A DNA stretch of 64,000 nucleotides from an uncultured Actinomycetes bacterium. GTDB taxonomy: Bacteria; Actinomycetota; Thermoleophilia; Gaiellales; Gaiellaceae. Of the stretch, positions 14,031 to 63,399 are shown piece by piece. Where the stretch lies: contig CAWDJV010000003.1 in NCBI GenBank assembly GCA_963802795.1, positions 128,938 through 192,937 of the forward strand, written 5' to 3'. Each line of letters begins with the position of its first letter. The stretch's first letter is position 1. The position numbers and the translations under genes are program-made. The notes under the pieces were generated by a model. The model worked only from the letters and a program-made list of their open reading frames with translations. It did not search any database and was not told the DNA's origin.

Positions 14031-14054
14031 AACGAGAGGCCGGTGGGCAGGGCG

Positions 14055-15137: not shown

Positions 15138-15211
15138 TGCCTCGCGATCGTAGGCCGGTGCCCGGACGGACCTCTCGCGAGAACGGCGTCTGCGGCATAC
15201 TCCGGGGGGTA

Positions 15212-15676
15212 ATGCCCAGTCGCCAGGGGTTTCGCCACCCGGACCCGGTCGGCCACATGCACGGCCACGGAGACGAGAGCGTCGAGGAAGTGTGCCGGCA
15301 GGCTGTCGAGCGGCTCTCCGCAAGGCTGCCCGGAGTTCAGGTTTCCTGTCATGTGCGCTCGGACGAGGCCATGCGGGTCGTCTCGTCGGCGGGCGGTCTG
15401 CGCCTGATCTACGAGATCGGCCGCGAGCAGGGCGGCATCTGCTGGCGCGCCGTCGAGACCGGACAGCCGCAGCTCGTGGAAGACGTCCGCGCCGACCCCG
15501 ACTACATGGCGACCGACGAGCGGGTGCGTGCCGAGATCGTCGTGCCGATCCACCACGAGTCCGGGGCGCTGTTCCTCCTCGACGCCGAGTTTCCCGACCG
15601 CGCCTTCACGCCGGAAGAAGCCGAGGCGGTCACCGACGCCGCGGCCGCGCTCGAGCGCGACCTCGCGGACTACTAG
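15212..15676 (+). CDS. GAF-domain protein
   Basis: GAF-like core (VVSSAGGLRLIYEIGREQGGICWRAVETGQPQLVEDVRADPDYMATDERVRAEIVVPIHHESGALFLLDAE). ATG 15212 is preceded by a G-run. The ORF is open from 15158. Confidence 0.7.
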   Translation: MPSRQGFRHPDPVGHMHGHGDESVEEVCRQAVERLSARLPGVQVSCHVRSDEAMRVVSSAGGLRLIYEIGREQGGICWRAVETGQPQLVEDVRADPDYMATDERVRAEIVVPIHHESGALFLLDAEFPDRAFTPEEAEAVTDAAAALERDLADY

Positions 15677-44454: not shown

Positions 44455-44566
44455 GTGGAATCACCCACTCCGCCGGCCGGCGGAGGTTGGGTGGTTTCTC
44501 CGAAGTTGCGTCCTTCGCTTCGACCTACTGTCGGGCAGGAATGCTCAAACCGGCAGAGGAGAAGTG

Positions 44567-45773: not shown

Positions 45774-45821
45774 AGGTCATGCGCGTCGTCAGTACGACCC
45801 GCGGATTCGAGGAAAGATGGG

Positions 45822-45851
45822 CAAATGCAGCGCTTTCGGCGAGAGCGGACG
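45822..45851. repeat. Left direct repeat (att-like, partial tRNA-Gly 3' end copy)
   Basis: caaatgcagcgctttcggcgaGagcggacg versus caaatgcagcgctttcggcgaAagcggacg at 63162-63191. Weaker similarity extends ~8 nt on each side. Confidence 0.7.
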
Positions 45852-45863
45852 CTCGGGATCCAG

Positions 45864-46686: not shown

Positions 46687-46896
46687 CTTCCGCGGCTGTG
46701 GACAGCCAGGAGCGGAGGGAACAGAACGGCGGCCGTACGCCTGAAGGATCGATCCGGGGGCGTCCCCCCAGGGCGGATCGGGGCAGCCCCTGATGTGAGT
46801 ACCGTCCGGCCGGCCTAGCGTCCGTCATGCGTTTCATGCGGTGCTTGTATCGACCGCCACGTTAGGCGGATAATCGAGGTCAGGTAGGAGGTGTTG

Positions 46897-49800
46897 ATGA
46901 CCGACCGGCTCGACGAAGCGGAGCGCCAGCTCCGTGCCGGGGACATCGACGCGGCACTGCAGCTTCTCCAAAGCGCACGGCGGGCCGCGGGTACGCAGCG
47001 AGACACCACGCGCATGCGTGAGATCGTCGAGCTCGGCCAGCGCATCGAGGGCGAGGCTGTCGGCTTGGTCAAGAAGCAAGCCTCGCTCTTCCTCCTTGCG
47101 GCCAGGACTGACCTGCTGTTCGCGGAGAAGCAGGACGCGCTCGTCCGAGATCGGATCGAAGCGGGGCGCGCCGCCGTCGCTGCGGGCGACGCAGGCGTCT
47201 GCTCTTTCGCCCTCGAGGACGCTCTCGGCAGAGAGCTGGGGAAGATTCCGACGCGGCGGGACCGCGCGGCGCTGGTCGAGATCGTTGCGCTCGCGAACGC
47301 GATCTCGCCGCGCGCCCGAGGAAGGGTGCTGCGCCGTCTCACGAGGGTTCTGGCCGAGGCCGAGAAGGCCCTTGGCCACCTGCAGGTGGCCAAGCCTTCA
47401 GGCCCGCCCCTGGCCAGGACGCCCACAGCTCGAGCGCCTGCGCCGGACGCGCTCGCCGCCGACGCGGTGCTGACGGCGAAGCTCGACGCCTTCGAGCAGC
47501 ACATCCGGTCGCTCGAGTCGGCGCTCGCGGAGCTTCGAGAGAGGGAGCTTCCGGCGCTTCGGGCGCTCGCCGCAGGCGGCGGGCGGGCTGCGGCGCCCGC
47601 GCCGGTCGTCTCGGTGTCGACGGACGATGTGCAACCGCCGGTCCGCGGGTGGGCTCCTGCTCCCGACGTGCAGGTCGGGCCCGAGATCCCCGCACCGAAG
47701 CCTGCAGAGCCTCTACGGCCTCAGGCGGCGCCGAAGCCGGCCGGCGCTGCCCCGCGTCGCCCGCGTCCGGCGGTTCCGCAGGTCACGCTCGCGCAGCTGC
47801 AGGAGCCGCGCGCCCTCGCCTGGGCGGGAGGAATCGTGACCCTCCTCGGAATCGTCTTCATCTCGATTCTCGCGGCAGATCGTGGCTGGGTCAGCGCCGA
47901 GCTTCGAGTCGTCCTCGGTGCGCTCGTCTCCGCGGCGATCTACGGCGCCGGCGTTTTCGCGTACGGACGCTACGGCCGCACCTGGGCCGCTCTCGCCGCG
48001 GCTGGGGCGGGGATCGGGGGCGCGTACGCGACGCTCGCCGCCGCGGGCGCCGTCTACGACTTCATCGGGAAGCCGGAAGCCCTCCTCGGGGCCGCGTTCG
48101 TCGCGGCGGTCGGCGTGGTCACCGCGGTCCGGTGGAACACGCAGATGACCGCCATCCTCGGCCTGGTGGGCGCGATGCTCGGCCCCACGTTGATCGAAGG
48201 CGGCGTGAGCGTGGAGGGAAGCGCCTTCGTGACGATCGTCCTCGGCGCAACCGTCGCGCTCACGGTGTGGAAGCGCTGGCTCGAGACCATGGCGATCGGC
48301 GGCGTCGTCAGCTTTGCACTGGCTCTGGGCCTACTCGGGGAGCTGAGCCCGGGCGACGACACGGCCGCGGCGGTCGTGGCGGCCACGTACGCGCTGCTCT
48401 TCCTGGCGGCCGGAATCGGTCACGACCTCAGACCTCCTCGGCCGCTCCTCGGAGAGGAGATCGTGCCCGCCACAGTCGCGGCCTTCCTCGGGGCAGGGGC
48501 CCTGGTCCCGCTCGTTGTCGCGCTGCAGGTCGACCCCGGCTCGCCTGTCGGGGTCCCGGTGACCCTCGCGGCCGTATGGCTCGCGGAGCTCGCGATCGCG
48601 ATCGCGTACCAGCTCGTGCGCGGGGCGGCGAACCTGCAGCGCGTGGTGAGCACGCTCCTGTTCGCCGCGTCGGCGCTCTCGTTCGCGACGACGCTCCGGT
48701 TCTTCGAGGGTCGCGAGGAGGGCTACGCTCTCATCGCGAGCACCGTCGTCTACCTCGCGTGCCTCGCCCTCCTGCGGGGACGAGGTCAGCGGGACCTCTC
48801 GAGCGCGCTTTGGGCGGTGGCCCTCACCGCGACCGCGGTCGGCGTCGCCGACCTCGTCTCGGGAAACGAGCTCGCGCTTGTCTGGGCAGCGGAGGGTGCC
48901 CTGCTTTCGTGGCTCGGGCTGAGGGCGCGGGAGCCGCGGCTCCTGCTCGGCGCCCTCGGCTATCTAGGTCTTGCCCTCGGGCAGACACTCATCCTCTCGG
49001 CGCCGCCGACCGAGCTCATCGTCGCCAACGACGACCCTGCCGAAGGAGTCCCGGCGGTTCTCGCGACGGCGGCCGGGCTTATCGTCTTCGCAGCCTGCTA
49101 CTGGCGCGCCGGGCTCGACCGACTGAACGTCCGCGGAACCGTCGTGCCGCTTCCGTCGGCGTGGGTCGGATCTCTCTGCGCGGTTGCAGCTGCCTTCGCA
49201 CTGACGCTCTACGCCGCGTCGCTGGCGCTCCTGGGCCTCTTCACCTGGCTCGGGGACGACGACTTCCAGGCCGCCTTCGAGCGTGGCCATCCCGCCGTGA
49301 CCTCGCTCTGGGGCGTCGTCGCCCTGGCCCTGGTGGTAGTCGGCCTCCGGCGGCGCTCGTCCGTCCTCCACGCGACCGGGCTCGCGGTCTACGGAGTGGC
49401 CGTCGCCGAGCTCGTCCTCGTGGACCTTCCGACGCTGTCCTCGACGAACGCCGCCTTCGCCGCGCTCGCCCTCGGCGTGCTCGTGCTCGCCGCCGGCTTC
49501 GAGCAGGGCCGCCTTTCTCGTGCGACCGTCGAGGGCTTCGAGGTCGACCCGCTCGCGCTCGGCTTCATCGGCAGCAGCCTCATGTTCCTGGTGCCGGCGA
49601 TCGTCGTCCTCCTCGAAGGCACCACCTGGTCCGTCGACAGGCTGGGCGCCGGTCTCCTCGCGGCCGCCGCGGCCTACGGAGCCCTCGCAGCGCTCGTTTT
49701 CCGGGAGAACCGCGACTTCAGCACCGTGCTCTGGGCGCCGGCGTTCGCCCTCGGGGCCGCCGCCGTGCCCGAGCTGCTCGGCGATCCCTGGCGCGTGCTC

Positions 49801-50439
49801 GCGTGGTCGGCCGCCGGCGTCGCGCTTGCCTGGCTGGCGGGACGCGCTGGGGAGCCTCGGTTCCTGCCGGCCTCGGGAGCCTTCGTCGGCCTCGCGCTCG
49901 CGTATGCCCTCCTGCTCGAGGTTCCTCCGACGGATCTCTTCGTCGCCGAACTTCGGCCGGCGGCCGGCCTCCCGAGCCTCCTCCTGGCGACGGCCGCTGC
50001 GTACGCCTTCGCCGCATCCCTCGACAGGGTTCAACGGGCGACCGCGTTCTGGACGGCCGGAGCCGTCACCGTGTTCGCGGCCTCCGTTGCGATCGTCGGG
50101 CTGTTCCAGTGGCTCGCCGCCGACGACCCGAAGAGCGTCGACGACGCCTTCCAGCGCGGGCAGACCGGCGTGAGCGCGCTGTGGGCCGTCGTCGGCCTCG
50201 TGCTCCTCTCGATCGGCTTGTGGAAGGACTCGCGAAACGTTCGGATCGGCGGCCTCGTGCTCTTCGGAATCGCCCTCGCCAAGCTCTTCCTCTACGACCT
50301 CTCCGCTCTGAGCGCCATGGCGCGCGCTGTCTCGTTCCTCGGGGTCGGCCTCGTCCTCCTGCTCGCCGCATTCCTCTACCAGCGCGTGAGCGGCCGGGAC
50401 GACGAAGCCGAAAGCCCACCGAGACCGTCGATCCCATGA
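46897..50439 (+). CDS. Giant DUF2339-like polytopic membrane protein with cytoplasmic coiled-coil/Pro-rich N-terminus
   Basis: AGGAGG at 46886-46891, then ATG 46897 (GTG 46891 is also possible). ~300-aa soluble N-terminal region, then >25 predicted hydrophobic helices in repeated blocks. One uninterrupted frame of ~1180 codons. Confidence 0.8.
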   Translation: MTDRLDEAERQLRAGDIDAALQLLQSARRAAGTQRDTTRMREIVELGQRIEGEAVGLVKKQASLFLLAARTDLLFAEKQDALVRDRIEAGRAAVAAGDAGVCSFALEDALGRELGKIPTRRDRAALVEIVALANAISPRARGRVLRRLTRVLAEAEKALGHLQVAKPSGPPLARTPTARAPAPDALAADAVLTAKLDAFEQHIRSLESALAELRERELPALRALAAGGGRAAAPAPVVSVSTDDVQPPVRGWAPAPDVQVGPEIPAPKPAEPLRPQAAPKPAGAAPRRPRPAVPQVTLAQLQEPRALAWAGGIVTLLGIVFISILAADRGWVSAELRVVLGALVSAAIYGAGVFAYGRYGRTWAALAAAGAGIGGAYATLAAAGAVYDFIGKPEALLGAAFVAAVGVVTAVRWNTQMTAILGLVGAMLGPTLIEGGVSVEGSAFVTIVLGATVALTVWKRWLETMAIGGVVSFALALGLLGELSPGDDTAAAVVAATYALLFLAAGIGHDLRPPRPLLGEEIVPATVAAFLGAGALVPLVVALQVDPGSPVGVPVTLAAVWLAELAIAIAYQLVRGAANLQRVVSTLLFAASALSFATTLRFFEGREEGYALIASTVVYLACLALLRGRGQRDLSSALWAVALTATAVGVADLVSGNELALVWAAEGALLSWLGLRAREPRLLLGALGYLGLALGQTLILSAPPTELIVANDDPAEGVPAVLATAAGLIVFAACYWRAGLDRLNVRGTVVPLPSAWVGSLCAVAAAFALTLYAASLALLGLFTWLGDDDFQAAFERGHPAVTSLWGVVALALVVVGLRRRSSVLHATGLAVYGVAVAELVLVDLPTLSSTNAAFAALALGVLVLAAGFEQGRLSRATVEGFEVDPLALGFIGSSLMFLVPAIVVLLEGTTWSVDRLGAGLLAAAAAYGALAALVFRENRDFSTVLWAPAFALGAAAVPELLGDPWRVLAWSAAGVALAWLAGRAGEPRFLPASGAFVGLALAYALLLEVPPTDLFVAELRPAAGLPSLLLATAAAYAFAASLDRVQRATAFWTAGAVTVFAASVAIVGLFQWLAADDPKSVDDAFQRGQTGVSALWAVVGLVLLSIGLWKDSRNVRIGGLVLFGIALAKLFLYDLSALSAMARAVSFLGVGLVLLLAAFLYQRVSGRDDEAESPPRPSIP

Positions 50440-51185
50440 AGCCGGAACGAGCCATCGCCGCCTGCCTTTCGGCGCTCGCCGCCGGCCTCGTCGCGCTCCT
50501 CCTGTTCGGGCCGACCGAGGGCGCGGAGGCCAAAGAGGAATCTCAGGAGGCAACGGCGACCGCTCCCGAGCCCCAGACGACGGCGGAGATCGAGACCGAG
50601 CCGGTCACCACGACCGAGACCGAGCCGGTCACCACCACGGAGGCCGAGCCGGTCACCACCACGGAGGCCGAGCCGCCGCCCTTCCTGCCCGGCGACGGCA
50701 CGTTCCCCGGGCCCGTCAGGCTCTTCCTGTTCTACCAGTCCGAGGTGAAGTGGAGGACGCACGAGCTCCCGAGCAAGGCGTCGGAGGTAACCATCGAGGC
50801 GAGGGCGACCTCCCTTCGGGGCCAGGCGGGCGACGTCCACGGTGTCGAGTGCACGCTCGACCGCCGGACGACGTACACGTTCTACGTCGACCTCTGGAGC
50901 GAACGGTACACGCTCGAGCGGACGAAGATCAAGACGACGGAGTACCTTCAGCGCGGCGAGGCGCCGAGCCTGCTCGCCCCCACGCGGCCAAATGTCCTGA
51001 GCCTCACGTGTGAATCACGGCGGCAGGGGACGATGCTGAGCCTCCGCGCGAACGGCGAGCCGCTCACGGCCTTCCTCGACCGCGGGAGCTCCGGCCGCTT
51101 CAGCGCCGTGAGCCTGGCCGCATGGAGCCCGGCGGGTGATCACACGGTCGTCTTCGACGGCGTCGTCGTCCAGACGAATCCCTAA
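50436..51185 (+). CDS. Secreted protein with EPVTTTE repeats and a beta-rich C-terminal domain
   Basis: The ATG overlaps the upstream stop (ATGA at 50436-50439). Signal/anchor AIAACLSALAAGLVALLLF, three EPVTTTE repeats, then a ~170-aa globular part. This is the last 249 codons of ORF 47649-51185. Confidence 0.7.
   Translation: MKPERAIAACLSALAAGLVALLLFGPTEGAEAKEESQEATATAPEPQTTAEIETEPVTTTETEPVTTTEAEPVTTTEAEPPPFLPGDGTFPGPVRLFLFYQSEVKWRTHELPSKASEVTIEARATSLRGQAGDVHGVECTLDRRTTYTFYVDLWSERYTLERTKIKTTEYLQRGEAPSLLAPTRPNVLSLTCESRRQGTMLSLRANGEPLTAFLDRGSSGRFSAVSLAAWSPAGDHTVVFDGVVVQTNP
50592..50675 (+). repeat. 24-nt in-frame tandem repeat (3.5 units)
   Basis: gagaccgagccggtcaccacgacc / gagaccgagccggtcaccaccacg / gaggccgagccggtcaccaccacg / gaggccgagccg. 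Confidence 0.85.
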
Positions 51186-51539
51186 GCGGTCCCGTCGCTC
51201 GTGGGCGACCCCGACCCGGAACGCAGCCGCGTCGGGCCACGCCTCGGGCGCCGGCAAGCCGGGGCGAGCCCGCCAGTTGAGAGCGGTCGAGGACCTGCTC
51301 CCGTAGGCCGCAGAGGCTCCCGGAGACCCAGAGCGCCAACAGCCCTGGTACGTGGACCGCGCGACCGCCGACGAGCGTCGCGAGAACGGAGCCGGCGTGG
51401 CGGGTTGACCTCGTTCCCGACGCCCCACTGGAAGTTCGACGCCGAGAACCACGAGGCGAGACAGACCGAGGGCGGTACTCGCGATCGAGTCGCGCCCGCC
51501 GTCGACGCTCACGTGTGTTGTCTCGTAGGTCGACTGTGT

Positions 51540-51980
51540 CTATCGCCGACGGATCCCGCGAGAGCTGACGACCCCTTCGATCTCGGCTGCCGCGACTGCC
51601 GTGGTCCTCGTGTTCCCAGACGCGGATAACCGTCCAGCCTGCAGCGGCGAGCTGCGCAGTCGCGTGTCCCTATCGCGGCGCTGGTTCGCCTCGATCTTCT
51701 GTCGCCACCAAGCGGCGTTCGCCTTCGGCCAAGTGCCGTGCTCAGGACAGCCGTGCCAGTAGCAGCCGTCGCAGAAGACAGCGACCTTGCGACGCGGGAA
51801 GACGATGTCCGCTCGTCTGCGGACCGTAGGGAGGGGTGGAAAATCGACGCGGTAGCGAAGCCCACGTCGGTGTAGCTCGCGGCGAAGAGCGACCTCGGCC
51901 GGCGTGTCGCGCTGCGGCGTGTTCTGCATCCGCCGCCTAGTCTCGGGCGCCGGCGCGACTGGAACTCGAGGCACGGCCAC
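51540..51980 (-). pseudogene. vsr: Very-short-patch repair endonuclease (Vsr) with two compensating frame changes
   Basis: TPAEVALRRELHRRGLRYRV, ADIVFPRRKVAVFCDGCYWHGCPEHG, WWRQKIEANQRRDR are in the ORF frame. The hallmark AQLAAAGWTVIRVWEHED is only in another frame, between ~51670 and ~51602. Confidence 0.75.
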
Positions 51981-51989
51981 CTCTCCAGG

Positions 51990-53233
51990 CTACGCGGCCG
52001 CGGCGGACATCGCCGTCGTAGCGATCTCAAGGGCGAGAACGTGACACCGTTCGCGGAGCTGGTCGACCGGTGTCGTCACGTCGACGGTCTCGACGCGGAG
52101 CCGCGGACCGCCGCGGACTACGCGATGCAGGCTCGGGCCGCTCGGCTTCTCGGCGTAGAGGAGGAGCCCTTCGTCTAGTCCGGTCGCGGAGCAGTAGGCG
52201 AGCAGCTGGTAGAGGTCGCCGACCTCGCCCTGCTCGCGTCGCCTTGTACTTCGCGTCGCCGACAAAAACGCAGCGGAGCCGCGCCAGAGCGAGAGGTCGG
52301 GTTCGGGTCGGACGCGGCTCGTCCTCGTCGAGGGCGACGGACTTTCCCTGTCGCCAGCGGTAGTTCGGCGGGAGAATGCCGCGGAGCTCGTCGCCGATCG
52401 CCGCCGAGACGAAGTCCTCGAACACGTCGTTCATGTCGAACAGGATCGAGCTCGTCGAAGCCGCACCCGGGTGGGAGCTCGACCGAGTGTTCGGACGAGG
52501 AGCGCGGCGAGCTCGAGCGCGGGTCGATACCGCTCGTCGAGCCGGGTGTACGTGAACGTCGGGAGTCGCCGCGGATCGGAAGCGCACATCGGTCACACTT
52601 CCGTCGAAGCCGTGAGCGCCTCCGCCGTCCTCCGTCGCAGGCGCGCGGTCGCGGAGTCGCAGACGCTCGATCCTCCGCAAGCCGCCTTGACGAGGCGGTT
52701 GGCCTCCGTGTCTACGGTGTGGTCGTCGTAGCCGACCTCGACCGGGAGGGGGAGGCCGTAGCGCCGCCGCAGCTGCTCGGCGAAGCGAACGCGGCCGCGG
52801 ACGGTCGGAAGTGCTCCTCGCGCGAGACGTAGCTCATCGGCAGGCCGCGACGCAGCGCGCCGTTGGAGTCGTCGAGGAACATCGTGACGAACGGCTCCAC
52901 GATCCCCTTGCGCGCGGCGAGCGTCGTCGGTGCCGCGAAGCGGAGCCTGCGAGCGTAGCCGAGGAGGAAGAAGACGCGGTCGATCGCGAGCTTCGGTTCG
53001 ATGACGACATGCAGCCGGCACGTCGTCGCCGCGCCCACGATGCTCGACGGCGTGACGACGTACCGCCCGCGATCGGGCTGGATCGTCAGCTTCGCGGGGA
53101 CGCCTGGAGCTCCGTGAGCTCCTGGGCGTCGAGCGCGAGCTCACTCGGCTTCCACTCCTGAAGCCGGATCGCTCTGCGCGATCGTCGACCTCCTCGCCAG
53201 CTTCGGGCTGTGCGCGCCGGCCGCGCGGTTCAC
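51990..53233 (-). pseudogene. McrC-like restriction subunit (multiple frame changes)
   Basis: GTG 53233 overlaps the McrB-like stop (GTGA). Blocks: IRLQEWKPSELALDAQELTEL; IVGAATTCRLHVVIEPKLAIDRVFFLLGYA; RGRVRFAEQLRRRYGLPLPVEVGYDDHTVDTEANRLVKAA; FDMNDVFEDFV; VFVGDAKYK; DLYQLLAYCSATGLDEGLLLYAE. They are spread over three frames. Confidence 0.7.
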
Positions 53234-55179
53234 GCGTGCTCGATTGCGGCGAGCGTGAACTCCTCACGCGGTCGGGCTCGTCGAAGAACTGCTCCTCGAT
53301 GTACGGCAGGATCGAGTGCGCCCAGATCCGCTCGAGCCACTGCCTCGGTCAAGGCCTGGCGCATGAAGTGGCTCGGTCCGATCTGCAGGTGTCGGTCGGG
53401 CGAGCATGCGTTCGCGGCGTCGACAACATCGGCGACGTAGACCATCGTCGGGCGCGTGTCGCTGTAAGCCACCGCCGCAGCAAGCCCTCGACGGGCGGCC
53501 GGTCCGGGAAGAAGTCGACGAAGTGGAAGCGGCGGCGCAGCGCCGCGTCGAGGAGCGCGATCGACCGGTCGGCGGTGTTCATCGTCGCCGATCAGATCAG
53601 AGGTTCTCCGGCAGCTCGAACGGCTCCGACCCGTACTGGAGCTCGATCTTCGTCGTCGCCGGTACTCGAGCAGGTAGTAGAGCTCGCCGAAGACCTTGGC
53701 GATGTTGCCGCGGTTGATCTCGTCGATGAGCAGCACGCAGGGCTCCGCCGACTCCTCGGCGATCTTCCGCCAGTTCGGCGCAGCGGACCCGGCCGTGAGC
53801 TCGAACGGACGTTCCCGTCGTCGCCCTCGCGCGGCCGGTAGCCCTCGACGAAGTCCTCGTAGCGTATAGACGGGATGGAACTGGACGGTCTTCCGGTGCT
53901 GGTCGTCGGGGGCGAGGAACCGGGCGAGCCGCCGAGCGACGTACGTCTTCCCCGTGCCGGGCGGGCCGTAGAAGATCATCTGCCGCTTGTCCTCCAGGAG
54001 CTCGAGGACGCGTCGCAGCCACTCCGCGTGAAGGAGCAGCTCGTCGGCCACCTCGCTCGACAGAGCCGTCCTCGGGGATCAGCTCCGTCCTCGTCCTCTC
54101 TCTGCTTCAGGAGCCACCAGAGGAAGACCATCGCGCCCCACGAGTCGTCTGCGTAGTAGGGCTCGAGGAGATCGCTGGAGGACGTCGTTGGACTCCTTCG
54201 CGAGCTGCGCCCGCGACTTGCCCCGCTCGTCCAGAGGCTCGACCGGCAGCTCGGGGAGCCGCATCACCGCGCGCTTGCCGTTCTCGCCGCGGTAGACGAA
54301 CAGCGGCACCCACCGGTCGGGGTAGACGATCGCGAGGCACTTCGTCGCCAGCGCCTCGCCGAACCCGCGCACCTTCCACTCCGGGTTGTCGAGTACGTCG
54401 TCGAGGCGGTCGCTCTCGTCGCCGGGGCCGTAGAGGAGGTGTCGGATCGTACGAGCGAGCGGGGCGATCGCCTCCGGCCCGGCACTCAGGTAGGGGTTGA
54501 TCTGCCCCTGATTGCCTGCGCCGCCGTAGGCGTTCGAGGCGATCCGGCGGAAGGCGGGGAGGTCGAACGTCTCCGGGTCCGCGATAGCGGCGTCGAGCGA
54601 TTCCTGCGCGAGCACGGGCAGCAGTTCCTCCCGCGCCGCAATCTGATCCTTGTCGTGTTGCCGTCGGGTAGCCCAGCTCTCGCTTGCAGCGCTCGATCAG
54701 CGCGCGAGACGAGTCGGCGTCGCGCCCGCCGCGCCGGCTCGTCGTACCGCGACCTCTGGGATACCACTCGCGGACCTTCGTCTCCAGCTCGCTTCCCTCC
54801 GGTAGCGATCAGCGTGGCGATCTCCCACCCTGGTCGACGTCGACGAAGATCGCCGCGGCGCCGATGTTCGTGCCCGGTCCGGTGAGCCGAGCCACCTTCT
54901 CGGCGGCGCGCTCCAGGTGCGCGTCGTTCGACAGGAGGATCGCGACGAGGTCGGGCTGCTGGTTGACGATACCGCCCTCGCCGAGACGGTTCTCGACGAC
55001 GCCGGCGTCATCGACGACCTTCGCGCGAACCTTCGTCGGCGTCGAGTCCGAGCAGCTCGGCGAGCCGGCGGTCGACCGGCCTCAGCCGGTTCGCGTTTTG
55101 AGGCGGTCCGGCGAGACGTCGCTCCCGGATGATCCGGTCGAGCTCGTCCGGAACGGCCGACGGCTGCCGACGGCCGCAT
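53230..55179 (-). pseudogene. McrB-like AAA+ GTPase with a long N-terminal region (multiple frame changes)
   Basis: ATG 55179. C-terminal motor blocks: QMIFYGPPGTGKTYVARRLA; VQFHP; VLLIDEINRGNIAKVFGELYYLLEYR; MNTADRSIALLDAALRRRFHFVDFFPD. The N-terminal ~350 aa (DELDRIIRER...; DAGVVENRLGEGGIVNQQPDLVAILLSNDAHLERAAEK...; AQESLDAAIADPETFDL...DNPEWKVRGFGEALATKCLAIVYPDRWVP) are of unknown fold. Confidence 0.7.
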
Positions 55180-55203
55180 CGTAGGGTGAATCTCGGGTGC
55201 TGT

Positions 55204-56421
55204 CTAAGCGGCGGCCTGCTCGCGAATCGAGCGGAGATGCGCCTCGACCGCATCGAGAAGAGCCCATCGGGGAACCGCGAACGTCGAATCCGCCGTGCGG
55301 CGCAGGAAGCCGGCCGTCGCGCGCTCCGACAGACGGCTTCAGTCGGGAAGCGGAGGAAGCCGGCGAGGTTCTGATAGGGAGCTCGAACGGGCCACCGCGA
55401 CACGGCACGCGGTAGGTTCCCGAGTCGTCGCCCCACGCTGCACGAGGCCACGGCGATCCGCTCGCGAAGGTCGTCATGGAGCGACTCGTCGTAAGGGCGC
55501 GGATCGCGGAGGCGTCGCCCGACCCACTCGGAGACAGGGACGCTCACGGCGTTGCCGACGAGCTTCCAGCGGCGCCCTCACCTCGCTTTCCCTCCTGCCG
55601 CGGGAGCCGTCCAGTCGGCGTTCGAACCCCTGCAGCCGCTCGGCGTCGCGGATGTCGGGCGTGCCGATCGATGCCGTCCGGCATCCAGATCGCCGGCGGC
55701 GAAGGGATGCCGATCGTCGAGCCGCCCTTCAGCGTCGGCACGCCATCCACCGCCCATCCGAGGCCGCGGATCCCCTCGGTCCAATAGAAGCCGCAGCGCG
55801 ATCCGCGTGTCGGCGGCTCGGGCTCGCCCGTCGTCCCCGTGAAACAGGACTCGCCGGGATCGTCCGTACCGCGACGCGAGCAGGATCACACGCTGCCGAC
55901 GCTGCGGAAGCCCGAAGCCCGCGCGTCGACCACTCGGTACGCCCAGCGGAAGCCGAGCTCACCCAGTCGCCGGGCGAGGTACCGCATCGCATCGACCGCG
56001 GTCGAGTTGGAGCATGAAAGGGACGTTCTCGAGCAGCAGCCAGCGCGGCTCGCGCTCCGCTCGCTCAAGCAGCTCGAACACGGGCTCCACGAGCCCGGAG
56101 TTCGTCCTTCGATACCGGCCGTGCGTCCCGCCTGGCTGAGGTCCTGACACGGAAATCCGGCCGCGACGAGGTCGCAGTCGGGGAAGCGAGTCGAGCGTCC
56201 GAATATCGCGCGCAAGCGGAATCGATGGAAAGCGGAAGCGGAGAACCGCAGCGGCGGCATCATCGATTTCGCACAGCAGCGTCCGACGAGTGCCCTGCGC
56301 GGTGAAGCCCAGCCTCGATCCCACCGATTCCGGCAAAAGAGCCCGACGACGCGGAGCGGAGACTGCACCGAATCGGAAAAGCTGCGACCTGGGTCGCGGT
56401 GATCACCTGGGAAGGACTCAT
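55204..56421 (-). pseudogene. dcm: DNA cytosine-5 methyltransferase (about nine frame changes)
   Basis: Ordered m5C-MTase motifs across three frames: FAGIGG (I), GFPCQDLSQAG (IV), LLLENVPFM (VI), FGLPQRRQRVILLA (VIII), TPDIRDAERLQGF, GNAVSVPVSEWVG (X). The ATG at 56421 overlaps the recombinase-remnant stop. Confidence 0.8.
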
Positions 56422-56779
56422 CGCCACGATCCAGTTTCGAGAGTGCGGCGGATGGCACCGTCGGACCGGGAGTCGGCAGGGAAGCGAAGTCGCTTGACCG
56501 CTCCGCGCAACTCGTGCGCGGTGTGACGCGCGTGTAGCGCTGGTTGGAGTCGAGGTGTTGTGTCCGAGCAGCTCCTGGATCTGGCGCAGGTTCGCTCCTG
56601 CGCGCAGCAACTCGGAAGCGAACACGTGGCGGAGTGTGTGCGGCGTCTCGCCTTCCGCACCTCAGCAGACGCCGCGACAGGCCTGCTACGGAAAGAGCCC
56701 TGGTAACGGGGCCTTCCGGACCACCATACGAGCGCTTCCACGCATGGAGATCCGTTGGCCGCGGTTGGCCGTCGTCCGC
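56418..56779 (-). pseudogene. Tyrosine recombinase/integrase C-terminal remnant
   Basis: Box II region [29 protein letters not shown]...[19 protein letters not shown] is read across two or three frames. No N-terminal SAM-like or core-binding part was found. The 5' limit is approximate. Confidence 0.65.
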
Positions 56780-57403
56780 GGGCGGCGGGTATCGAGCAGA
56801 CCGCGGTCACGAGCCCAGTTGCGCGCGCGCCCGGCGATCCGCGCGAAGTCGGCGTCCCAGGCCTTCACCCGCTCCGGATGGAACGGCCCGAGCTTGCCCT
56901 GCGGCCACGAACCGAGATAGCTGTAGTGGTGGATGATGACGGTCTCTGGAAGGGGCGGGATCAGCCGCTTCGTGACAAGGTGATCGAGTGGAGCGGGGTT
57001 TCTTCCCCCGAGGATGACGACGAGTTCGGAGAGCCGTTTCGAGTCAAAGCGCAGCACGGGCGCCCAGCTTCGGCAACGGCAAACTGGACTTCATCCGCGG
57101 TCGTCTTCCAGTCCTTCACTCGGTACGACGACTTGATCACGTCGGTGATATAGCAGCGCCATCCTCCCGGCCTGAACGCGGCCGCCGGACTTGAAGCCGT
57201 GCTTTGCGAGCATTTCGCGGAAGAGCTTGTCGCCGGGGCTCGATGGTCCACTGCGTCTCGTTGTCTGTAGGTTGTTCGAAGCTGTCTCGAGGCGGCTGAG
57301 GCTCGGCGACTCGGCGATAAACCAAACAGGGCGCGAATGGGTCACCGAGGTAGCCGGTCATCCCACGGGTGTTCGTCCCGTCGATCCGGGAGGCGAGGCT
57401 CAT
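56780..57403 (-). pseudogene. Uracil-DNA-glycosylase-superfamily-like protein with atypical motifs (frame changes; 3' limit approximate)
   Basis: ATG 57403. Blocks: VWFIAESPSLS (position of UDG motif A GEAPG); GDKLFREMLAKHGF; CYITDVIKSSYRVKDW; VIIHHYSYLGSWPQG (position of motif B HPS...). Assignment is by pattern only. Confidence 0.4.
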
Positions 57404-57478
57404 CTCGATATGCGGCGTCGGCGCGTCGTTCGAGCTCCGCGAAAAAGGACGCGTGGTCGGCGGTGACTGGGCGCTGCA

Positions 57479-58834
57479 TCAGACCTTGACGGTCTCGAGG
57501 TGCTCGAGCAGGCGCGCGTGCGCCTCCCACCCGTCGAACTCGACCTGGCGCGTCACGCCCAGTTCGTAGTCGGAGGGCGGCGCGTGATCCTCGAGCAGCT
57601 GCCCGGCGCCGGCGCGGCCGACGACGACGCACGCGTGACGGTGTCGCGTGGTGAGCACGGCGGCGCGACCGGCGTCGAGGTGGAAGGCCGTCGCGTCACG
57701 ACGACCGGCGAGCGGATGCCAGACGAGAACGACGTCGAACTCGCGACCCTGCAGGCGGTTCGCGGTGTCGACGACGACCTCGCCCAGGTCACGGCGCTGC
57801 AACTCGACCGAAACGGCCGCGCGCTGGTTGCGATGGCTGACGCCGACGGCGACGCGAGAGTGGATGAAGGCGCGACGGTCTTGCCCGCGTTCTTCTCGTC
57901 GCGCACCGTTGGCTTCGAGTCGAAGAGACCCTGCACCAGGTCGCCGAGCGCGACGACGATCTCGCGGTCAGGCTGGATGACGAGCCGGTGCGGAAGCTCG
58001 AGGTACGCCCAGCCATCGGCGGCTGCAGCGCGCCAGACCTCGGCCGCAGGGCCACCGCGAAGGGAACGGACGCGCAGCGCGAGCTCGCGATCGCCGTCCT
58101 CGCTACCAGGGCCGAAGTCGAGATCGGGATAGAAGACCTCGCGGATCACGCCAGCGGCGCTGACCGGCAGTCGTCGCGTCACGGGGAGCGCGCGAACCGG
58201 AACGTCGTCGCCGCGGTACGCGAGCAGGGCGTCGACGGCGTTCAGCACGGGGTTGACCGCAAGGCCGCGCCAGCGCGCATCGTCGACGGTGGAGAACGGG
58301 TCGAGCTGGCCAGGATCGCCGAGGAAGTCGAGCGCCGGGAAGAGATCGGCGATGCGCAGGAGCTTCGCCGACTGCATCTGATAGCCCTCGTCGACGACCC
58401 CGGCGTCGAACCGCCCGTCTGGAATGTGGGCAGCGCTGAACGCCCACTTGTCGGCGGTGGCGACGATGACCTTCGCCGAGCCGAGGTTCTTCGCGTCGAC
58501 GATCGTGACGTTCGGCAGATGCTTGTCGGGCGGCAGCACGACGCGCGCTCGCGCGGAAGGAAGGAGATCTCGCGCTTCGGCGCGATCGCCGCGATCCGAC
58601 CGACGAGGTCGAACGCCTGCTCGTTCGTCTGGGCGATCACTCCGACGTGCGCGTCGTCGTCGGCGAGCGCATCGACGAGCCGCGTCACCGCGCCGGTCTT
58701 GCCGGCACCGGCCGGCGCCTTCGTGAGGCGCGCGCGCTCGCCGCCGCGCCTTCGCCGCCTCGATCAGGTCGTCGACGACGGCATCGGCGGCCGCGAGAGC
58801 CTCGGCGCCCGAAAGGACCGTCGAGACTGCTCAT
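57479..58834 (-). pseudogene. SF1 (RecD/Upf1-like) helicase, at least four frame changes
   Basis: The ATG at 58834 overlaps the upstream stop (ATGA). Walker A APAGAGKTGAV; motif II VVDEGYQM; motif III LGDPGQL; C-terminal VDTANRLQGREFDVVLV...LTTRHRHACVVVG. Confidence 0.7.
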
Positions 58835-60427
58835 ACCGCCGTCGTCTCCATCGCCGCCGCCTGAGTGACGTCGACGAGCGTGTCGAGCGCGGGCCCGTCG
58901 TCGAGCTCGGCGCTGTCGTCGGCGCGGCTCCTCGCCGACGGCGTGTGCGTCCAGGGCGTCGCCCGCGGTAGCGGCGCGCTCAGCGACCAGCCGATCCGGA
59001 GGCGTGGAAGATGCTGAAGCAGGCGCGGTCGCCGTGACTCGGGGAGCTCGCCGCGCATTCCCTCGACGACCTTCAGGACGACCGTTGCGCCGCCCGGACG
59101 CCGAGGGCACCGCCGACTCGACGAGCACGCGCAGCTTCTGCCGATCCGTCCACCACAGCTCCGTGCCGATCGGGAAACGGGCACGGGTCCGCGATGGCGA
59201 GCGTGATCAGCGGCCGCGCAGTCATCGACTTCCCGGACGGGCCGAGCTCGCGGTTGTCGGTGTCGACGTTGATGACGTCGCCGACGATCGCCTGGCCCTC
59301 GACTGATCGCTGCGAGCAGCGCGTACTCGTCCTCGAGCACCTGCGCGGCCTCGTAGCGTGCCTGTGCCGCCTCCCAGTCGTCGAGCACGAGCGCCGCCCG
59401 GCGCGCGGAGTCGATCGGACGCTCGACGTCCGCCTCTCGCGATGTAGTCGGCGTGCCGAGTGAAGTCGCGCAAGATCGTCGTCCCAGCGCGTCGCCACCG
59501 ACGGCGCCTCCGGCAGTTCGGCGAGGATGTCGCGGGCGATCCAGAGCGCTTCCCAGGTCGGCATCGAGACACGGACGCAGCAGCTCGCGCATCTCTCCGC
59601 CGAGCTTCTCGACGACGCGCGGGATCGACCGAGCCGGCACGCTTGGCGTTGAACCGCGCGACCGCCTCGATCAGCGGGCCGTTGTCGACCTGCGGATCGG
59701 TGAGGACGCTCATCGGGCACGCCCTCGATCAGCGCTGCCGCCTCGGCGCCGTGCATCGAGTCGAGGTCGACGCCGTTGCACGCGCTCGGAGCGATCTCGG
59801 CGAGGTAGGCCGGGGTCGAACCATGCGAGCTGTGCGCCGAGGTGAGCATCCTCGAAGCTCGACTGGCCGGTCACGAAGTGGTTTGCGAGTTCGCGGGTCG
59901 CGACCACCGTGAGGGCGGAGCCGGCCGACGCGCCTGCTCGGCGTAGAAGCCGAGATGCGCACCCGCGACGTTCACCTCAGGCGGCACTTCGATGTGGCCG
60001 CCGTAGCCGGCCGGACGCATCCGCCGACCGAGCCGGTCGAGCAAGCGCGACCACCGCTTCGTTCGCGACGAGCAGCTGGGGAGCCCTGCGGACGCGCGTG
60101 TAGTGCTTGCCCGTTCTTCGTCTGGAAGTGGTCGCGCGGCGCACCGGCAGCGGCATCGACGGCGTCGCAGACGATCTTCGCCAGCTTGCGCCATCGCGCC
60201 GAACGCGATGCCCGGCGTGCGGGGCTCGGGCGCGACGATCAGCGTCGGCTTCGCCGCGCGAGGTGCCGACGAGCGCGCCCCAGACCGCGTGCGACTCGAT
60301 CGACATCTGCATCGCGGCGATCGCAATCGGCTTCGGCTCGAGATGCACGTGGCGGAGCACCCGCCTGCGCTGAGCGCGACCCGACTCGGCGGCGTGTCGC
60401 GGCGATCAGCAGATCGACCGCGTTCAT
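58831..60427 (-). pseudogene. Unknown ~530-aa protein (middle gene of the nuclease-X-helicase trio), many frame changes
   Basis: ATG 60427 directly follows the upstream TAG. Protein-like blocks in three frames: HVHLEPKPIAIAAMQMSIESHAVWGALVG; KPTLIVAPEPRTPGIAFGAMAQ; LLDRLGRRMRPAGYGGHIEVPPEVNVAGAHLGFYAEQ; TRELANHFVTGQSSFEDAHLGAQLAWFDP; MPTWEALWIARDILAELPEAP; IDSARRAALVLDDWEAAQARYEAAQVLEDEYALL; SVEGQAIVGDVINVDTDNRELGPSGKSM. No family recognised. Confidence 0.5.
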
Positions 60428-61608
60428 CTAGGCGCAGCCTCCTTCGGCGCGCAGCCTCGGCGGATCCGTCGGCAGCGCGGCCTCGATCGAGCAGCCGAGC
60501 GGCGCGCAGCAGGTGGTCGGCGATGTCCTCCTCGGCACTGTCGGGCGGCGCGCCGTTGGCGAGCTCGAGCGCGCGCCCGATGCTGCGGACAGAGCCGAGA
60601 TCGAGGCCGGCGCACGCCGGGTTGCCGGAGACGCGGGCGGTCTCGCGGCAGTGGAGCGCGAGCGGGCAGTATGCTGAGGCAGGACGGCTCGTAGTGCGTG
60701 CCGAGCGTGTCGAGTACCTCGGCGATGTGCCCGGCGGCGTCCTCGTCGTTCATGCCGGTGGTGTCGAGGGTCACGCCGGGCGGCAGAGCCGCGAGGATCG
60801 TCGGGATGGTCGCGCGGCGGGCGAGCATGCGGCGCAGCGTGCGCACCTGCCGCGAGACGTCGATCTTCTCGACGGTCGGGACGAGCGAGGTGTTCTTCGC
60901 ACAGACGAGCAGCACCTCGGTCGAGACGACGCTCGGGTCGAGCCCCTCGGCCTCGAGCAGGTCGACCAGCGCGGCGACATAGACCGCGGTCTGCCACGCC
61001 GCCCCGCCGACCTTCTCCGGGTCGGCGCGACCGTCGACGACCGGGAAGCTCTTGATCTCGACTACGCGGATCTGGTCGCCGATCCGCCAGGCGATGCCGT
61101 CGGCCTCGAGACGCGCGATCGCGCCGCCGAAGTCCCACTGAAGTGCGCCGCCGTCGATCAGGTTGTACGCGTCCGTCCTCGCCCTGGGCCATGGCGATGA
61201 TCGCGTTCTTCGTCTCGGCGGCGCGCTTCGCGAGGGCGATCGACGGATCGCGCGGGTTGATCGGATAGAGCTCACGCAGCGGCAGGACGCGCACCGCCTC
61301 GACGGGATAGCCGACCTCGCGCAGCAGGCGGATCAGCTCGGCGTAGTTGTCGTCCTTGACGAGGCGCTCGAAGCGATTCCCGCGCTGCAGAGCGAACTTC
61401 GACTGCTCCTCGGGCACCGGGCGGCCGAGCCGCGCTGCGAGCGCGGCCTTGTCGACACCGGCGGCGTCGAGCACGCGGCGTGCGTTGCACGCCGGGTTGG
61501 TAGCGAATCGCTGCAAGCGTGCGCGCGTTCGGGAGCTTCATCCGGGAGTGGGCCGCGAAGAGCAGCGAGACCGGCCGTGACCGGATCAGGCCCGCCCTTG
61601 CGCACCAC
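60428..61608 (-). pseudogene. Cas4/RecB-like PD-(D/E)xK nuclease with Cys cluster (frame changes; start approximate)
   Basis: GAGGAGG, 7 nt, then GTG near 61608-61611. Blocks: FATNPACNARRVL; FALQRGNRFERLV; LEADGIAWRIGDQIRVVEIKSFP (D...ExK); AAWQTAVYVAAL (QxxxY); C-terminal EPSCLS..CPLALHC. One N-terminal plus three C-terminal Cys is the Cas4/AddB Fe-S pattern. Confidence 0.55.
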
Positions 61609-61910
61609 TACGCGTCCTCCTCAATACCCTTGAAGACCTTCAACGCAACCTTCACGAAGAACCCTCTTCTCCCGTTGTTTCCTCGGCCTGCTCGGCGACC
61701 CAGGCTCAAGATCTGAATGACAGACGACCGACCGAGGGTCATCCTCTCACTCTCTCTTCGGCTAGCCGGCGTGCATGCTTTAGGCCTGCTGAGACCACAC
61801 CTCAGTGGGTTCGGCGCAGGGGGATGTGTCTTGGGGTTCTCGAGGGGCTTCGCGTTGAGGGCGCAGACGTCGGGCTGGTCTGAGAGCGCCCCAACCCTTC
61901 GTCGGTCGGC

Positions 61911-62153
61911 CTAGCGGGGCGACCCGACAGGCTCGAGCCCGTGCTCTCGGACGACGTGCTCGGGCACGACGAACGGGTACGCCCAGCCTTGGGCGTTCTG
62001 ATGCCGGGGCGTCGGCTTTGCGAGACGCTCCTTCCAGAGCTCGACGATGCTCGCCGCCCACAGCGTGCCAGCGAGGCCGTGCTCGTCCAGGTAGGCGCGA
62101 ACGTCGGCGGCGGTCGGGCGGCCTCTTGGGTGGCACAGTGAGCCGAAGTGCGT
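61911..62153 (-). CDS. Open frame with strong G/C third-position bias but no canonical start (possible small-gene remnant)
   Basis: RPTAADVRAYLDEHGLAGTLWAASIVELWKERLAKPTPRHQNAQGWAYPFVVPEHVVREHGLEPVGSPR-stop. The nearest GTG (62136) is in another frame. Confidence 0.25.
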   Translation of the reverse strand, partial: THFGSLCHPRGRPTAADVRAYLDEHGLAGTLWAASIVELWKERLAKPTPRHQNAQGWAYPFVVPEHVVREHGLEPVGSPR

Positions 62154-62820
62154 TCAGTTGCGGGTATCGAGAGCTACTGGTCGCACTCCGCGGAGGCGTC
62201 GAGGAACACAGCACGGGCCTGACCTTCTTGCGCACATATTGGTACGACGGCGCGCGGGACGGGATCCCGACGACTGATCACAGACTCATCGCAGGCCTTC
62301 CGTACGTCAAAGTCAGACTCGGGCGACTAACGAAGCGCGGACAGCAAAGGGTGTCGATGGACTCATCTACCGCGATCTAACCGCTTTCGCGCGCGTCGGC
62401 GCTCGAGCGCGCGTACCTGTTCACCGGCGACGGGGACCTTCGCGAGAAGCGTCGTGACGGCCCAGGACCTTGGGCGTTCAGGTCGTCCTCATGAGCCTGC
62501 CCCAACCCGTCAGACGGGCCGGTGAGCCGCCCGTGGTCGCGAGGTCGACGAGGTCATCGTGCTCGAGCGCCGTTTTGGGAGGCCTCACTGCTCGAGGCGG
62601 AGGCCGTCGGCACTTGATCGGAGCATCGGTGCCGCCCGAGAGCGCAGCCCTGGAGGCCTGTGCACAGGCATTCGGGGCAGGTAGGGCGGCCGACGCCACG
62701 ACGGACGAGGTCCTTGAGCTGCTGAACAAGGAACCCGAGGTGCCGAAAGACATCTACGTCCAGCTCGTTCTAGCCGCGGAGACGTCGGTCGGCTTTTTGC
62801 GGTCCGCATCCCGCTGCTAA
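62150..62820 (+). pseudogene. NYN/LabA-like domain protein fragment (frame changes, N-terminus not found)
   Basis: LTFLRTYWYDGARDG...LPYVKVRLGRLTKRGQQ, then in other frames KGVDGLIYRDL...AYLFTGDGDL...AQDLGVQVVLMS, and a C-terminal tail ending at 62820. Confidence 0.45.
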
Positions 62821-63161
62821 AGGCGAATTGCGGAGCGCGTTCTGGACCGCGCTCAAGCGCGAGACCGAGGACCAAGCGGGTCGGCGGCGTCGAATTGTCT
62901 TCCGAGGAAGGCTCGGAAGGCGAATGAAAGCGTCATGGAGCGTGCGCCTCAGGGATTCGCGCAAGATTGGCACGCCACGAGCGTTACCGACCACCATCCA
63001 CTATAGCCATGGGGCGTGACGCCGCCCTCTCTCGGCGGTAGCACGGGTTCGAGTCCGAATGCCCACTCTGGACGTCCGGAGATGGACGTCGCTCATACGT
63101 TTGCTGCCCTTGCGCTGCCCGCTGGGCGAGGGATCTCAGCTATCGGTGTCTCGAAGCTGGC

Positions 63162-63191
63162 CAAATGCAGCGCTTTCGGCGAAAGCGGACG
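63162..63191. repeat. Right direct repeat (att-like) overlapping the tRNA-Gly 3' end
   Basis: Identical to 45822-45851 except for 1 nt. Positions 63184-63191 are the discriminator plus the 3' acceptor strand of the tRNA. Confidence 0.7.
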
Positions 63192-63256
63192 ACGGGGCTC
63201 GAACCCGCGACCCTTGGCTTGGGAAGCCAATGCTCTACCAGCTGAGCTACGTCCGC
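63184..63256 (-). tRNA. tRNA-Gly (anticodon CCC)
   Basis: The reverse complement folds as a cloverleaf: GCGGACG-TA-GCTC-AGCTGGTA-GAGC-A-TTGGC-TTCCCAA-GCCAA-GGGTC-GCGGG-TTCGAGC-CCCGT-CGTCCGC-T. 73 nt, with CCA not encoded. Confidence 0.9.
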
Positions 63257-63399
63257 CTGGCGCGCCAACGATACCACCGCCCGGCGTCCACCCTGGCAGC
63301 GCAAAGGGCGGCTGCCACAAAGCCGCGCTCGCCTCAGGGTCCTAGTGCCTCGCGCCCGGCGATGGAATACTTCTCTGGGAAATCCGGAGAGGAGTTGGG

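Follow-up and report, generated by a model that had tools for sequence, protein, structure and literature searches.

Machines that combine a helicase with a nuclease are central to break repair and to immunity alike. In Dna2 (PDB 5EAN), a Cas4-type PD-(D/E)xK nuclease with a four-cysteine iron-sulfur cluster is joined to an Upf1-like motor of helicase superfamily 1B (SF1B), and a beta-barrel (1B) and a helical stalk (1C) on the first RecA domain are the hallmark of the UPF1/DNA2 family (PMC11090510). RecBCD, AddAB and AdnAB are multi-subunit enzymes that couple an SF1 motor to a RecB-family nuclease; RecC is a non-catalytic scaffold, and RecBCD also destroys phage DNA. Helicase and nuclease are likewise paired in Nhi, Gabija (GajAB) and Hachiman (HamAB), which are found in defense islands, and ACE1, an Argonaute-associated Cas4 relative, serves a non-CRISPR defense system (PMC12094033). 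Furthermore, a recent preprint associates a subbranch of TnsBC telomeric transposons with sbcCD and a four-gene operon that includes a predicted exonuclease and a helicase, and suggests a role in break repair (10.1101/2024.11.13.623437). Here, we describe three genes, denoted gA, gB and gC, which occupy positions 57479-61608 of a 64,000-nucleotide (nt) stretch, hereafter the window, of contig CAWDJV010000003.1 (assembly GCA_963802795.1; G+C content ~70%) from an uncultured bacterium of the family Gaiellaceae. These genes form a real, conserved and translationally coupled operon, unnamed and uncharacterized, that probably encodes a split DNA-end helicase-nuclease analogous to Dna2 and RecBCD. 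For the role of the operon, we favor defense by end-directed destruction of DNA, at a probability of roughly 0.5.

A conserved, translationally coupled operon

In the window, the three genes lie on the minus strand in the order gA, gB, gC. Gene gA (60428-61608) encodes a Cas4/RecB-like PD-(D/E)xK nuclease, as judged from tblastn pieces, motifs and a fold model; gB (58831-60427) encodes a family-specific protein of ~527 amino acids (aa) and shows 86.6% blastn identity to locus L090; and gC (57479-58834) encodes a compact SF1B helicase core of ~450 aa, identified by Pfam, profile matches and tblastn pieces. An earlier reading of the window from the sequence alone, hereafter the first-pass annotation, described three co-directional genes with abutting or overlapping stop and start codons, and both junctions proved exact. 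The gA stop codon TAG (60430-60428) abuts the gB start codon ATG (60427-60425) in the context GCGCC TAG ATG AAC, whereas gB ends and gC starts (ATG, 58834-58832) within a shared ATGA at 58834-58831, in the context GGT ATGA GCA. The GTG at 61608, with GGAGGA upstream, is the probable start codon of gA, and the peptide MVRKGGPDPVTAGLAALRG that it opens aligns to the N-termini of homologs. Scans for promoters and terminators near the operon yielded nothing informative. None of the three genes is open in one frame throughout.

The trio had been proposed to be a conserved unit, and intact copies, with up to 94% identity, were indeed found elsewhere. A gA query stitched from its frame segments retrieved 403 proteins, the best of which are 90-94% identical and 362-391 aa long, and the contigs of intact relatives carry unbroken genes of ~390, 527 and 450 codons with the same junctions, plus an additional gene, g0. 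At the DNA level, the window is homologous to the closest loci over exactly the segment from 57479 to ~61600. A scan of one genome per species recovered relatives of gA from at least 445 species, almost all of them Actinomycetota, the nearest among the matches listed being a Solirubrobacterales metagenome-assembled genome (MAG), with 70% identity. The operon thus is common in the phylum that is the source of most antibiotics, yet three of the four proteins that it encodes fall outside all described families.

Across the family, gA and gB are adjacent in 82 of the 83 loci, and gC directly follows in ~70. Genes gA and gB overlap by 4 bp in 46 of 85 loci, and their junction falls within -40 to +10 nt in 65; at the gB/gC junction, an overlap of 4, 10 or 11 bp is present in 58 of 72 loci, and in 65 the genes overlap or are separated by no more than 10 nt. 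Because the same gene order recurs in ~80 independent loci (of 85 considered) and overlapping junctions are the rule, the association of the three genes is far beyond chance. Between intact copies, the ratio of nonsynonymous to synonymous substitution rates (dN/dS) is 0.07-0.26. In two cases, complete operons were detected on contigs binned outside Actinomycetota, namely, an Acidobacteriaceae MAG (L012) and a 'Rickettsiales' MAG (L077), which reflects either horizontal transfer or mis-binning.

The original description of a three-gene unit holds for the window but not for most lineages, where a fourth gene, g0, is located upstream of gA, often overlapping the gA start by 4 bp. The g0 protein (~275 aa) contains a predicted N-terminal coiled coil and has no match in Pfam, NCBIfam, PADLOC or PHROGs. 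It is present in about half of the loci, by both hidden Markov model (HMM) matches (52 open reading frames (ORFs) in 83 loci) and BLAST clustering (44 of 85 loci). A g0 profile run over the whole window gave no match.

A few proteins of the family are fusions. P0230 combines gB (residues 1-474) with gC (residues 495-928) through a clean linker, and P0223 and P0253 are gA-gB fusions, of which P0253 has a clean linker, whereas that of P0223 is Arg-rich, so that this fusion may be an artefact. Such proteins are rare in the family.

Predicted functions of the encoded proteins

The intact gA protein is ~390 aa long, and its database relatives are all labelled hypothetical and carry no Pfam domain. 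The first-pass annotation noted D...ExK and QxxxY nuclease motifs, together with a 1+3 cysteine pattern, in gA, and helicase motifs in gC, and alignment of each family demonstrates that these features are real and family-wide. In gA, the columns D147, E161, K163, Q183 and Y187 are invariant among 52 sequences, making up the D, E-x-K and Q-xxx-Y motifs, and the copy in the window keeps these catalytic residues. Among the same sequences, C287, C291 and C297 are invariant and C18 is nearly so (at least 90%), a four-cysteine set that is predicted to form an iron-sulfur-type cluster module. Searches of Pfam and NCBIfam matched no nuclease family, even at E-values up to 1. The AlphaFold2 (AF2) model of gA (mean predicted local distance difference test score, pLDDT, 92.2) matched, in Foldseek searches, the Cas4 protein SSO0001 (E = 9e-4), RecE, MGME1 (probability 1.0) and ACE1, as well as Cas4 in the Cas4-Cas1-Cas2 complex, Exo5 and AddB/AdnAB. 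By its motifs and modeled fold, gA is Cas4-like, while remaining outside the curated families.

The gC protein gave matches to the Pfam AAA_12 model at 28.5-33.1 bits, above the cut-off of 27, and a weak match to AAA_30. A profile of 32 gC sequences matches IGHMBP2 (E = 3.7e-11), DNA2 (2.5e-10) and UPF1 (3.5e-8), with alignments spanning both RecA domains, and the motifs GAGK, DExYQM, GDPGQLDPF, TANRLQGxE and R-H-R are invariant in these sequences. The protein begins only ~30 residues ahead of Walker A, and the alignments are limited to the RecA core; therefore, gC has no room for an N-terminal barrel and stalk. Judging by these profile matches, gC is an SF1B helicase of the Upf1/Dna2/IGHMBP2 type that lacks the barrel and stalk of that family.

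The middle protein could not be assigned to any family in the first-pass annotation, and this assessment stands for every sequence library searched: gB has no match in Pfam, NCBIfam, PADLOC, PHROGs or PDB sequences, and profiles of gB and g0 run against PDB sequences gave only chance coiled-coil matches. Within its own family, the gB profile recovers 953 clusters at 50% identity (E ≤ 1e-3; 1.8 billion representatives searched). The AF2 model (pLDDT 84.7) consists of an alpha/beta domain (residues 1-135), long helices (148-372), of which those at 275-372 precede a beta-barrel (376-467), and a disordered tail with the invariant motif P483..P487-W-T-H490. The whole chain has no significant Foldseek match among PDB structures or viral models, and viral models gave small-barrel matches only. 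Local matches were obtained with Sen1 (probability 0.93-0.97 over ~165 columns, E = 0.06) and, weakly, with SETX and Aquarius (probability 0.13-0.16), all at E-values of 0.02 or above. We also considered the possibility that gB is a degenerate helicase paralog of gC, which was rejected because an hhalign comparison of gB with gC found no similarity.

Given the parts list, the gene order, the translational coupling and the occasional fusions, the simplest reading is a single helicase-nuclease complex. Beyond the observed arrangement, motifs, folds, helicase class and contexts, we infer complex formation, polarity, substrate and a defensive role as follows. The gA, gB and gC proteins, usually with g0 encoded ahead of them, would assemble into one machine that depends on a DNA end. 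In this assembly, gC would be the 5'-3' motor, moving along single-stranded DNA from the end; gB would be a non-catalytic scaffold, its long helices and barrel clamping or guiding the strand and tethering gA and gC; and gA would cut the single strand that is fed to it. At loci with attached sbcCD, DNA ends that are blocked or folded into hairpins would be opened by SbcCD to give the trio access. The resulting activity would most likely serve to destroy invading linear or broken DNA, that is, provide defense against phages or plasmids.

Genomic contexts and possible roles

The operon is recurrently placed among known defense genes in variable regions, with strong PADLOC matches among its neighbors. 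Among 260 non-redundant genes located within three genes of the operon, PADLOC (E ≤ 1e-8) identified components of Wadjet (JetA, JetB and JetC) and MADS (mad2 and mad3), mREase_IV (E = 2e-270), SngC of Shango (5e-268), Hhe (2e-170), ZacA of Azaca, TmtA, Cas3, GajB, AriA of PARIS, MkoA and a type IIG enzyme, along with the PDC candidates PDC-S37, PDC-S19 and PDC-S02. Pfam analysis of half of the neighbors showed helicases, DDE transposases and ATPases of the AAA_5, AAA_15 and AAA_21 families, mixed with ordinary genes. For example, in Nocardia cyriacigeorgica, g0-gA-gB-gC is followed by genes for McrB, McrC and a type I/IIG enzyme. PDC-S06 (E = 9e-163) and a NERD-UvrD helicase flank the operon in locus L001, an AriA/PtuA-like ATPase does so in locus L090, and the neighbors of the operon in L002 and L003 include an integrase, IS110, a methylase, an AAA_5/nSTAND3 protein and a solo Cas1.

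Two of these neighborhoods deserve attention on their own. At L001 (8567-15410), a gene for a 1731-aa SACS-domain protein lies directly 3' of gC and is coupled to that of the NERD-UvrD helicase, which matches RTasNERD-Hel of PADLOC (E = 1e-57); these two genes may represent another uncharacterized defense pair. The solo Cas1 (530 aa; L002, 18881-20473; L003, 17325-18917) is encoded ~5 kb away from the operon in a neighborhood where no CRISPR genes were called, and may belong to a casposon-like or defense-island element.

A different type of context is seen in ~22 species of Streptomycetaceae, where gA-gB-gC, without g0, occupies one fixed chromosomal site among housekeeping genes, in the order TPR, His_Phos, gA-gB-gC, a 124-aa protein, Prim-Pol, pgi and a Na/H exchanger. 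The genes for the 124-aa protein, which contains no recognizable domain, and the 195-aa Prim-Pol always come after gA-gB-gC in L013, L017, L022, L035, L088 and ~15 more Streptomycetaceae loci (at ~14.1-15.9 kb), and these two proteins may be components added in this lineage in place of g0. Genus-fixed sites also exist in Actinomadura and Micromonospora.

In a third type of context, sbcD-sbcC, the genes for a DNA-repair nuclease, directly adjoin the g0-form operon. This was seen in 16 of the 85 loci, representing at least 8 genera, with the pair either divergently upstream or co-directionally downstream, with unrelated outer flanks; the window itself lacks sbcCD. The same six genes, sbcCD and g0-gA-gB-gC, are also carried by three Streptomyces plasmids, 3.5-15 kb from the ends of the records. 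These observations bring in the major rival explanation, namely, that the operon functions in the processing of DNA breaks and ends, for repair or for the upkeep of mobile and linear replicons, rather than in immunity. Under this scenario, the trio would resect ends opened by SbcCD, analogous to Mre11-Rad50 acting with Dna2 or to Mre11-Rad50-HerA-NurA, and chromosomes, plasmids and telomeric transposons would carry the operon for their own maintenance. Apart from the recurrence of the sbcCD link in two arrangements and its presence near plasmid ends, this explanation is favored by the fixed site near pgi with its downstream Prim-Pol gene, and by the link of sbcCD and a four-gene operon to telomeric transposons and break repair in the preprint cited above. 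That single sentence is the only mention of such an operon that we found, and literature searches by keyword and RefSeq accession gave no characterization. That operon is very probably the same module, as matched by description rather than by sequences. Conversely, the distribution of the operon is patchy, most loci lack sbcCD, many copies reside in defense islands, or in the tRNA island of the window, beside restriction systems, Wadjet and similar genes, and the operon is also found in genera with circular chromosomes. As for the telomeric setting, the PLSDB gene table, which is incomplete, lists neither tnsB nor tnsC close to any of the three copies on plasmids. All considered, a repair function is a serious, although less likely, alternative.

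On two of these plasmids (L091/L094, NZ_CP108489.1, 277814-294147; L092, NZ_CP027023.1), the six-gene form is followed by a complete Wadjet system (JetABCD). Here, an anti-plasmid system is carried by a plasmid, next to the operon and near the end of the record.

Replication modules of actinophages and plasmids often include Cas4-type exonucleases and SF1 helicases, which suggests yet another possibility, namely, that the trio serves a phage, plasmid or integrative element in replication, recombination or conjugation. The few copies on large Streptomyces plasmids and the integrases and insertion sequence (IS) elements near some loci are compatible with such a role. However, a search of 50,697 phage records gave no match to gB, so that a phage origin was rejected, and gA, gB and g0 have no PHROG match. 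Among 72,556 plasmid records, gB was found in only four, all typed as non-mobilizable and one of them really a chromosome, and the genes that recur next to the operon do not include those for a relaxase, TraB or replication proteins. Thus, a mobile-element module is very improbable.

Several further observations weigh against the preferred reading, that is, a defensive helicase-nuclease complex. The enrichment of defense genes among the neighbors is only semi-quantitative. A site fixed across ~22 species, such as that in Streptomycetaceae, is unusual for a defense system, and the sbcCD linkage and the Prim-Pol neighbor fit repair as well as they fit defense. Furthermore, in Micromonospora (L021, L028, L038, L059, L065, L076 and L089), gA-gB is kept with no gC nearby, and in Actinoplanes (L008, L026, L056 and L061), gC is inverted and located 2-6 kb away; in these genera, either another helicase substitutes, or gA-gB could act without gC. 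The likeness of gB to Sen1 is local, with no whole-chain match, such that the equivalence of the gB barrel and helices with the barrel and stalk of Dna2 is suggested by model comparison. Finally, the claim of the first-pass annotation that the trio corresponds to no named defense system is supported by PADLOC-DB v2.0.0, where gB and g0 have no match and those of gA and gC are short, with E-values of 0.006 or worse, so that no component is matched significantly; this release dates from 2023, and systems named later are outside the screen.

Overall, the view of the operon as a candidate defense module, put forward in the first-pass annotation, fits the location among defense genes in variable contexts, the window included, but fits less well the core-like site in Streptomycetaceae and the association with sbcCD in 16 loci and on three plasmids. 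Core-genome contexts and conjugation or replication modules had been named there as settings that would speak against defense; in part, these were encountered, in the form of the fixed Streptomycetaceae site and the sbcCD linkage. A more specific version of the defensive reading, in which a three-subunit re-creation of Dna2, built around a new scaffold family and partnered by SbcCD in the manner of Mre11-Rad50 with Dna2, is used as an immune system, is put forward only tentatively. If valid, it would provide a natural dissection of the control that the barrel and stalk exert over an SF1B motor, a bacterial partner of SbcCD in end resection, and a new barrier to phages and DNA transfer in Streptomyces and Nocardia that is relevant to strain engineering.

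The island in the window

The only tRNA gene in the window, tRNA-Gly(CCC), is located on the minus strand at 63183-63257 (ARAGORN, Rfam). A 47-nt direct repeat with 85% identity (63154-63200 and 45814-45860) comprises the last 18 nt of this tRNA gene and 29 nt of its 3' flank, and the two copies look like an attachment (att) pair bounding a 17.3-kb island. Hence the earlier description of the operon as part of a tRNA-flanked island is correct for one flank, the other being the direct repeat rather than a tRNA.

Downstream of gC, on the same strand, lie a C-terminal fragment of a tyrosine recombinase (56542-56658; Phage_integrase, Pfam E = 3.8e-8) and then four frame-broken genes, those for a Dcm-like C5 cytosine DNA methyltransferase (~55257-56461; Pfam DNA_methylase in two frames and a blastx match to the L002 methylase), an McrB-like AAA_5 GTPase (~53484-54012; Pfam AAA_5, E = 2.2e-12, and a blastx match to Nocardia McrB), McrC (52234-52868; Pfam McrBC, E = 6.4e-14) and the Vsr endonuclease (51750-51938; Pfam Vsr, E = 9.4e-13). 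The resulting minus-strand order is gA, gB, gC, integrase fragment, Dcm, McrB, McrC, Vsr. A restriction-modification block adjoining the trio had been reported, and this block is indeed present downstream, although the integrase fragment intervenes. The fragment is the only integrase trace and is located in the middle of the island, which suggests that two elements were inserted in tandem.

Within the repeat-bounded island, two plus-strand genes are intact, in contrast to all others there, one for a 1182-aa polytopic membrane protein (46891-50439) and one for a secreted protein (50412-51185) with four 24-nt tandem repeats (50568-50675) encoding TEPVTTT units. Between gA and the tRNA gene, a broken plus-strand ORF (61950-62800) contains an 'RTYWYDG' stretch; by eye, it recalls the NYN/LabA type, an unconfirmed resemblance for which Pfam gave nothing at E ≤ 1e-3.

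Frame breaks in the window copy

Multiple frame breaks in all three genes, as noted in the first-pass annotation, were confirmed by tblastn with intact relatives, which divides gA into minus-strand segments at 61590-61528, 61541-61494, 61498-61184, 61185-60664, 60671-60483 and 60484-60440, each ~90% identical to intact homologs, and gC into segments at 58745-58554, 58542-57799 and 57919-57482, whereas gB (within 58831-60427) is split into many short pieces. A global alignment with L090 (86.6% identity) includes 505 mismatches and 44 insertion or deletion (indel) events, and nearly all of these events are bases added in the window. When five sequences are aligned together, only the window has 23 insertions of its own, versus a single unique deletion, while L090 and L001 each have no unique insertion and one unique deletion. 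All but two of the 23 insertions are single-base (G 8, C 7, T 5, A 1), only ~6 of these 21 extend a homopolymer, and the inserted bases follow the composition of the genome; gB alone contains at least 15 single-base insertions. With the insertions projected out, dN/dS between the window and intact copies is 0.08-0.13, compared with 0.07-0.11 for intact pairs, and every catalytic motif is kept.

From the frame breaks, the first-pass annotation concluded that the local copy is probably inactive. The possibility that this copy is a dead remnant in a decaying island, with breaks that are real mutations, is consistent with the concentration of the breaks at 51.2-63 kb, where the Dcm, McrBC, Vsr and integrase genes and the trio are all broken, while ORFs of 560-1180 aa elsewhere in the window are intact, and with the missing g0 and the truncated integrase. 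Decay involving 23 indels should bring an excess of nonsynonymous changes, more deletions than insertions, and indels at repeats, none of which was seen; therefore, we consider it unlikely. Furthermore, the breaks come in patches that are not confined to the island: frameshift-dense regions were mapped at 51179-63150, 1-2500 and 13997-15234, and a gene for a flavin adenine dinucleotide (FAD) monooxygenase (44564-45773) contains a single break near 45000. The patch at 1-2500 covers tandem paralogous secreted-protein genes, which are also broken. A coding-frame model classified 61-72% of the 52-64 kb region as 'non-coding', as opposed to 0-8% in most other bins; the coarse frame-tracking HMM lost the densest frameshifts and served only for mapping the affected zones.

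Such patchiness looks like uneven consensus quality of the source assembly. The inactivity of the local copy is accordingly doubtful, given that nearly every break is a +1 insertion and no relaxation of selection is seen. The breaks are likely a technical error, for which a poor consensus of long reads, in an island of low coverage, is a candidate cause; less probably, they stem from an insertion-biased process that acted very recently. Because the frame breaks bear the signature of sequence error, pseudogene calls on the window are not to be trusted.

Comparison with known helicase-nuclease systems

The operon most closely resembles Dna2, with which it shares the combination of nuclease and motor types; moreover, the domain order of Dna2, that is, nuclease, barrel and stalk, motor, is the same as the gene order gA-gB-gC, and Dna2 works with Mre11-Rad50, just as the operon is often found beside sbcCD. 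Unlike Dna2, the operon encodes three polypeptides, with g0 as an extra component, gA is not seen by the Pfam nuclease models, and no similarity to Dna2 was detected in the sequence of gB, the correspondence of this protein to the barrel and stalk being suggested by the local Sen1-type matches only.

RecBCD, AddAB and AdnAB resemble the operon in their multi-subunit organization, in the pairing of an SF1 motor with a RecB-family nuclease, and in the case of RecBCD, in the presence of a non-catalytic scaffold, and AddB and AdnA/AdnB are among the fold matches of gA. However, no relationship at the HMM level was found, the subunits encoded by the operon are far smaller, its motor is a single small SF1B protein with no UvrD-type motor present, and nothing points to Chi-like regulation.

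Among the defense systems, Nhi is similar in having an Upf1-like SF1 motor but is a single protein, and the PADLOC models of Nhi, GajA/GajB and HamA/HamB are not matched by the trio, the best being GajB, at E = 0.054 over 30 residues. None of Nhi, Gabija and Hachiman has a gB-like subunit. The Cas4 protein SSO0001 and ACE1 share with gA the fold, the D/ExK/QxxxY motifs and the 1+3 cysteine cluster, whereas stand-alone Cas4 nucleases differ from gA (~390 aa), which has extra helical regions at both termini and no CRISPR or Argonaute linkage.

In archaea, Mre11-Rad50 is genetically linked to a resection pair of a motor and a nuclease in the Mre11-Rad50-HerA-NurA system, a parallel to the sbcCD-linked loci, but its motor, a hexamer of HerA, and its nuclease, NurA, have no relationship to those of the operon, and the system belongs to core rather than accessory repair. 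The four-gene operon of TnsBC telomeric transposons (10.1101/2024.11.13.623437) is alike in the association of sbcD and sbcC with four genes that include those for an exonuclease and a helicase; it is described in a single sentence, unnamed and without analysis or experiment, and most members of the present family, the one in the window included, lack both sbcCD and a telomeric setting. Among helicase-nuclease end processors, what appears to be new here is the scaffold family represented by gB and, by analogy, a split Dna2-like layout.

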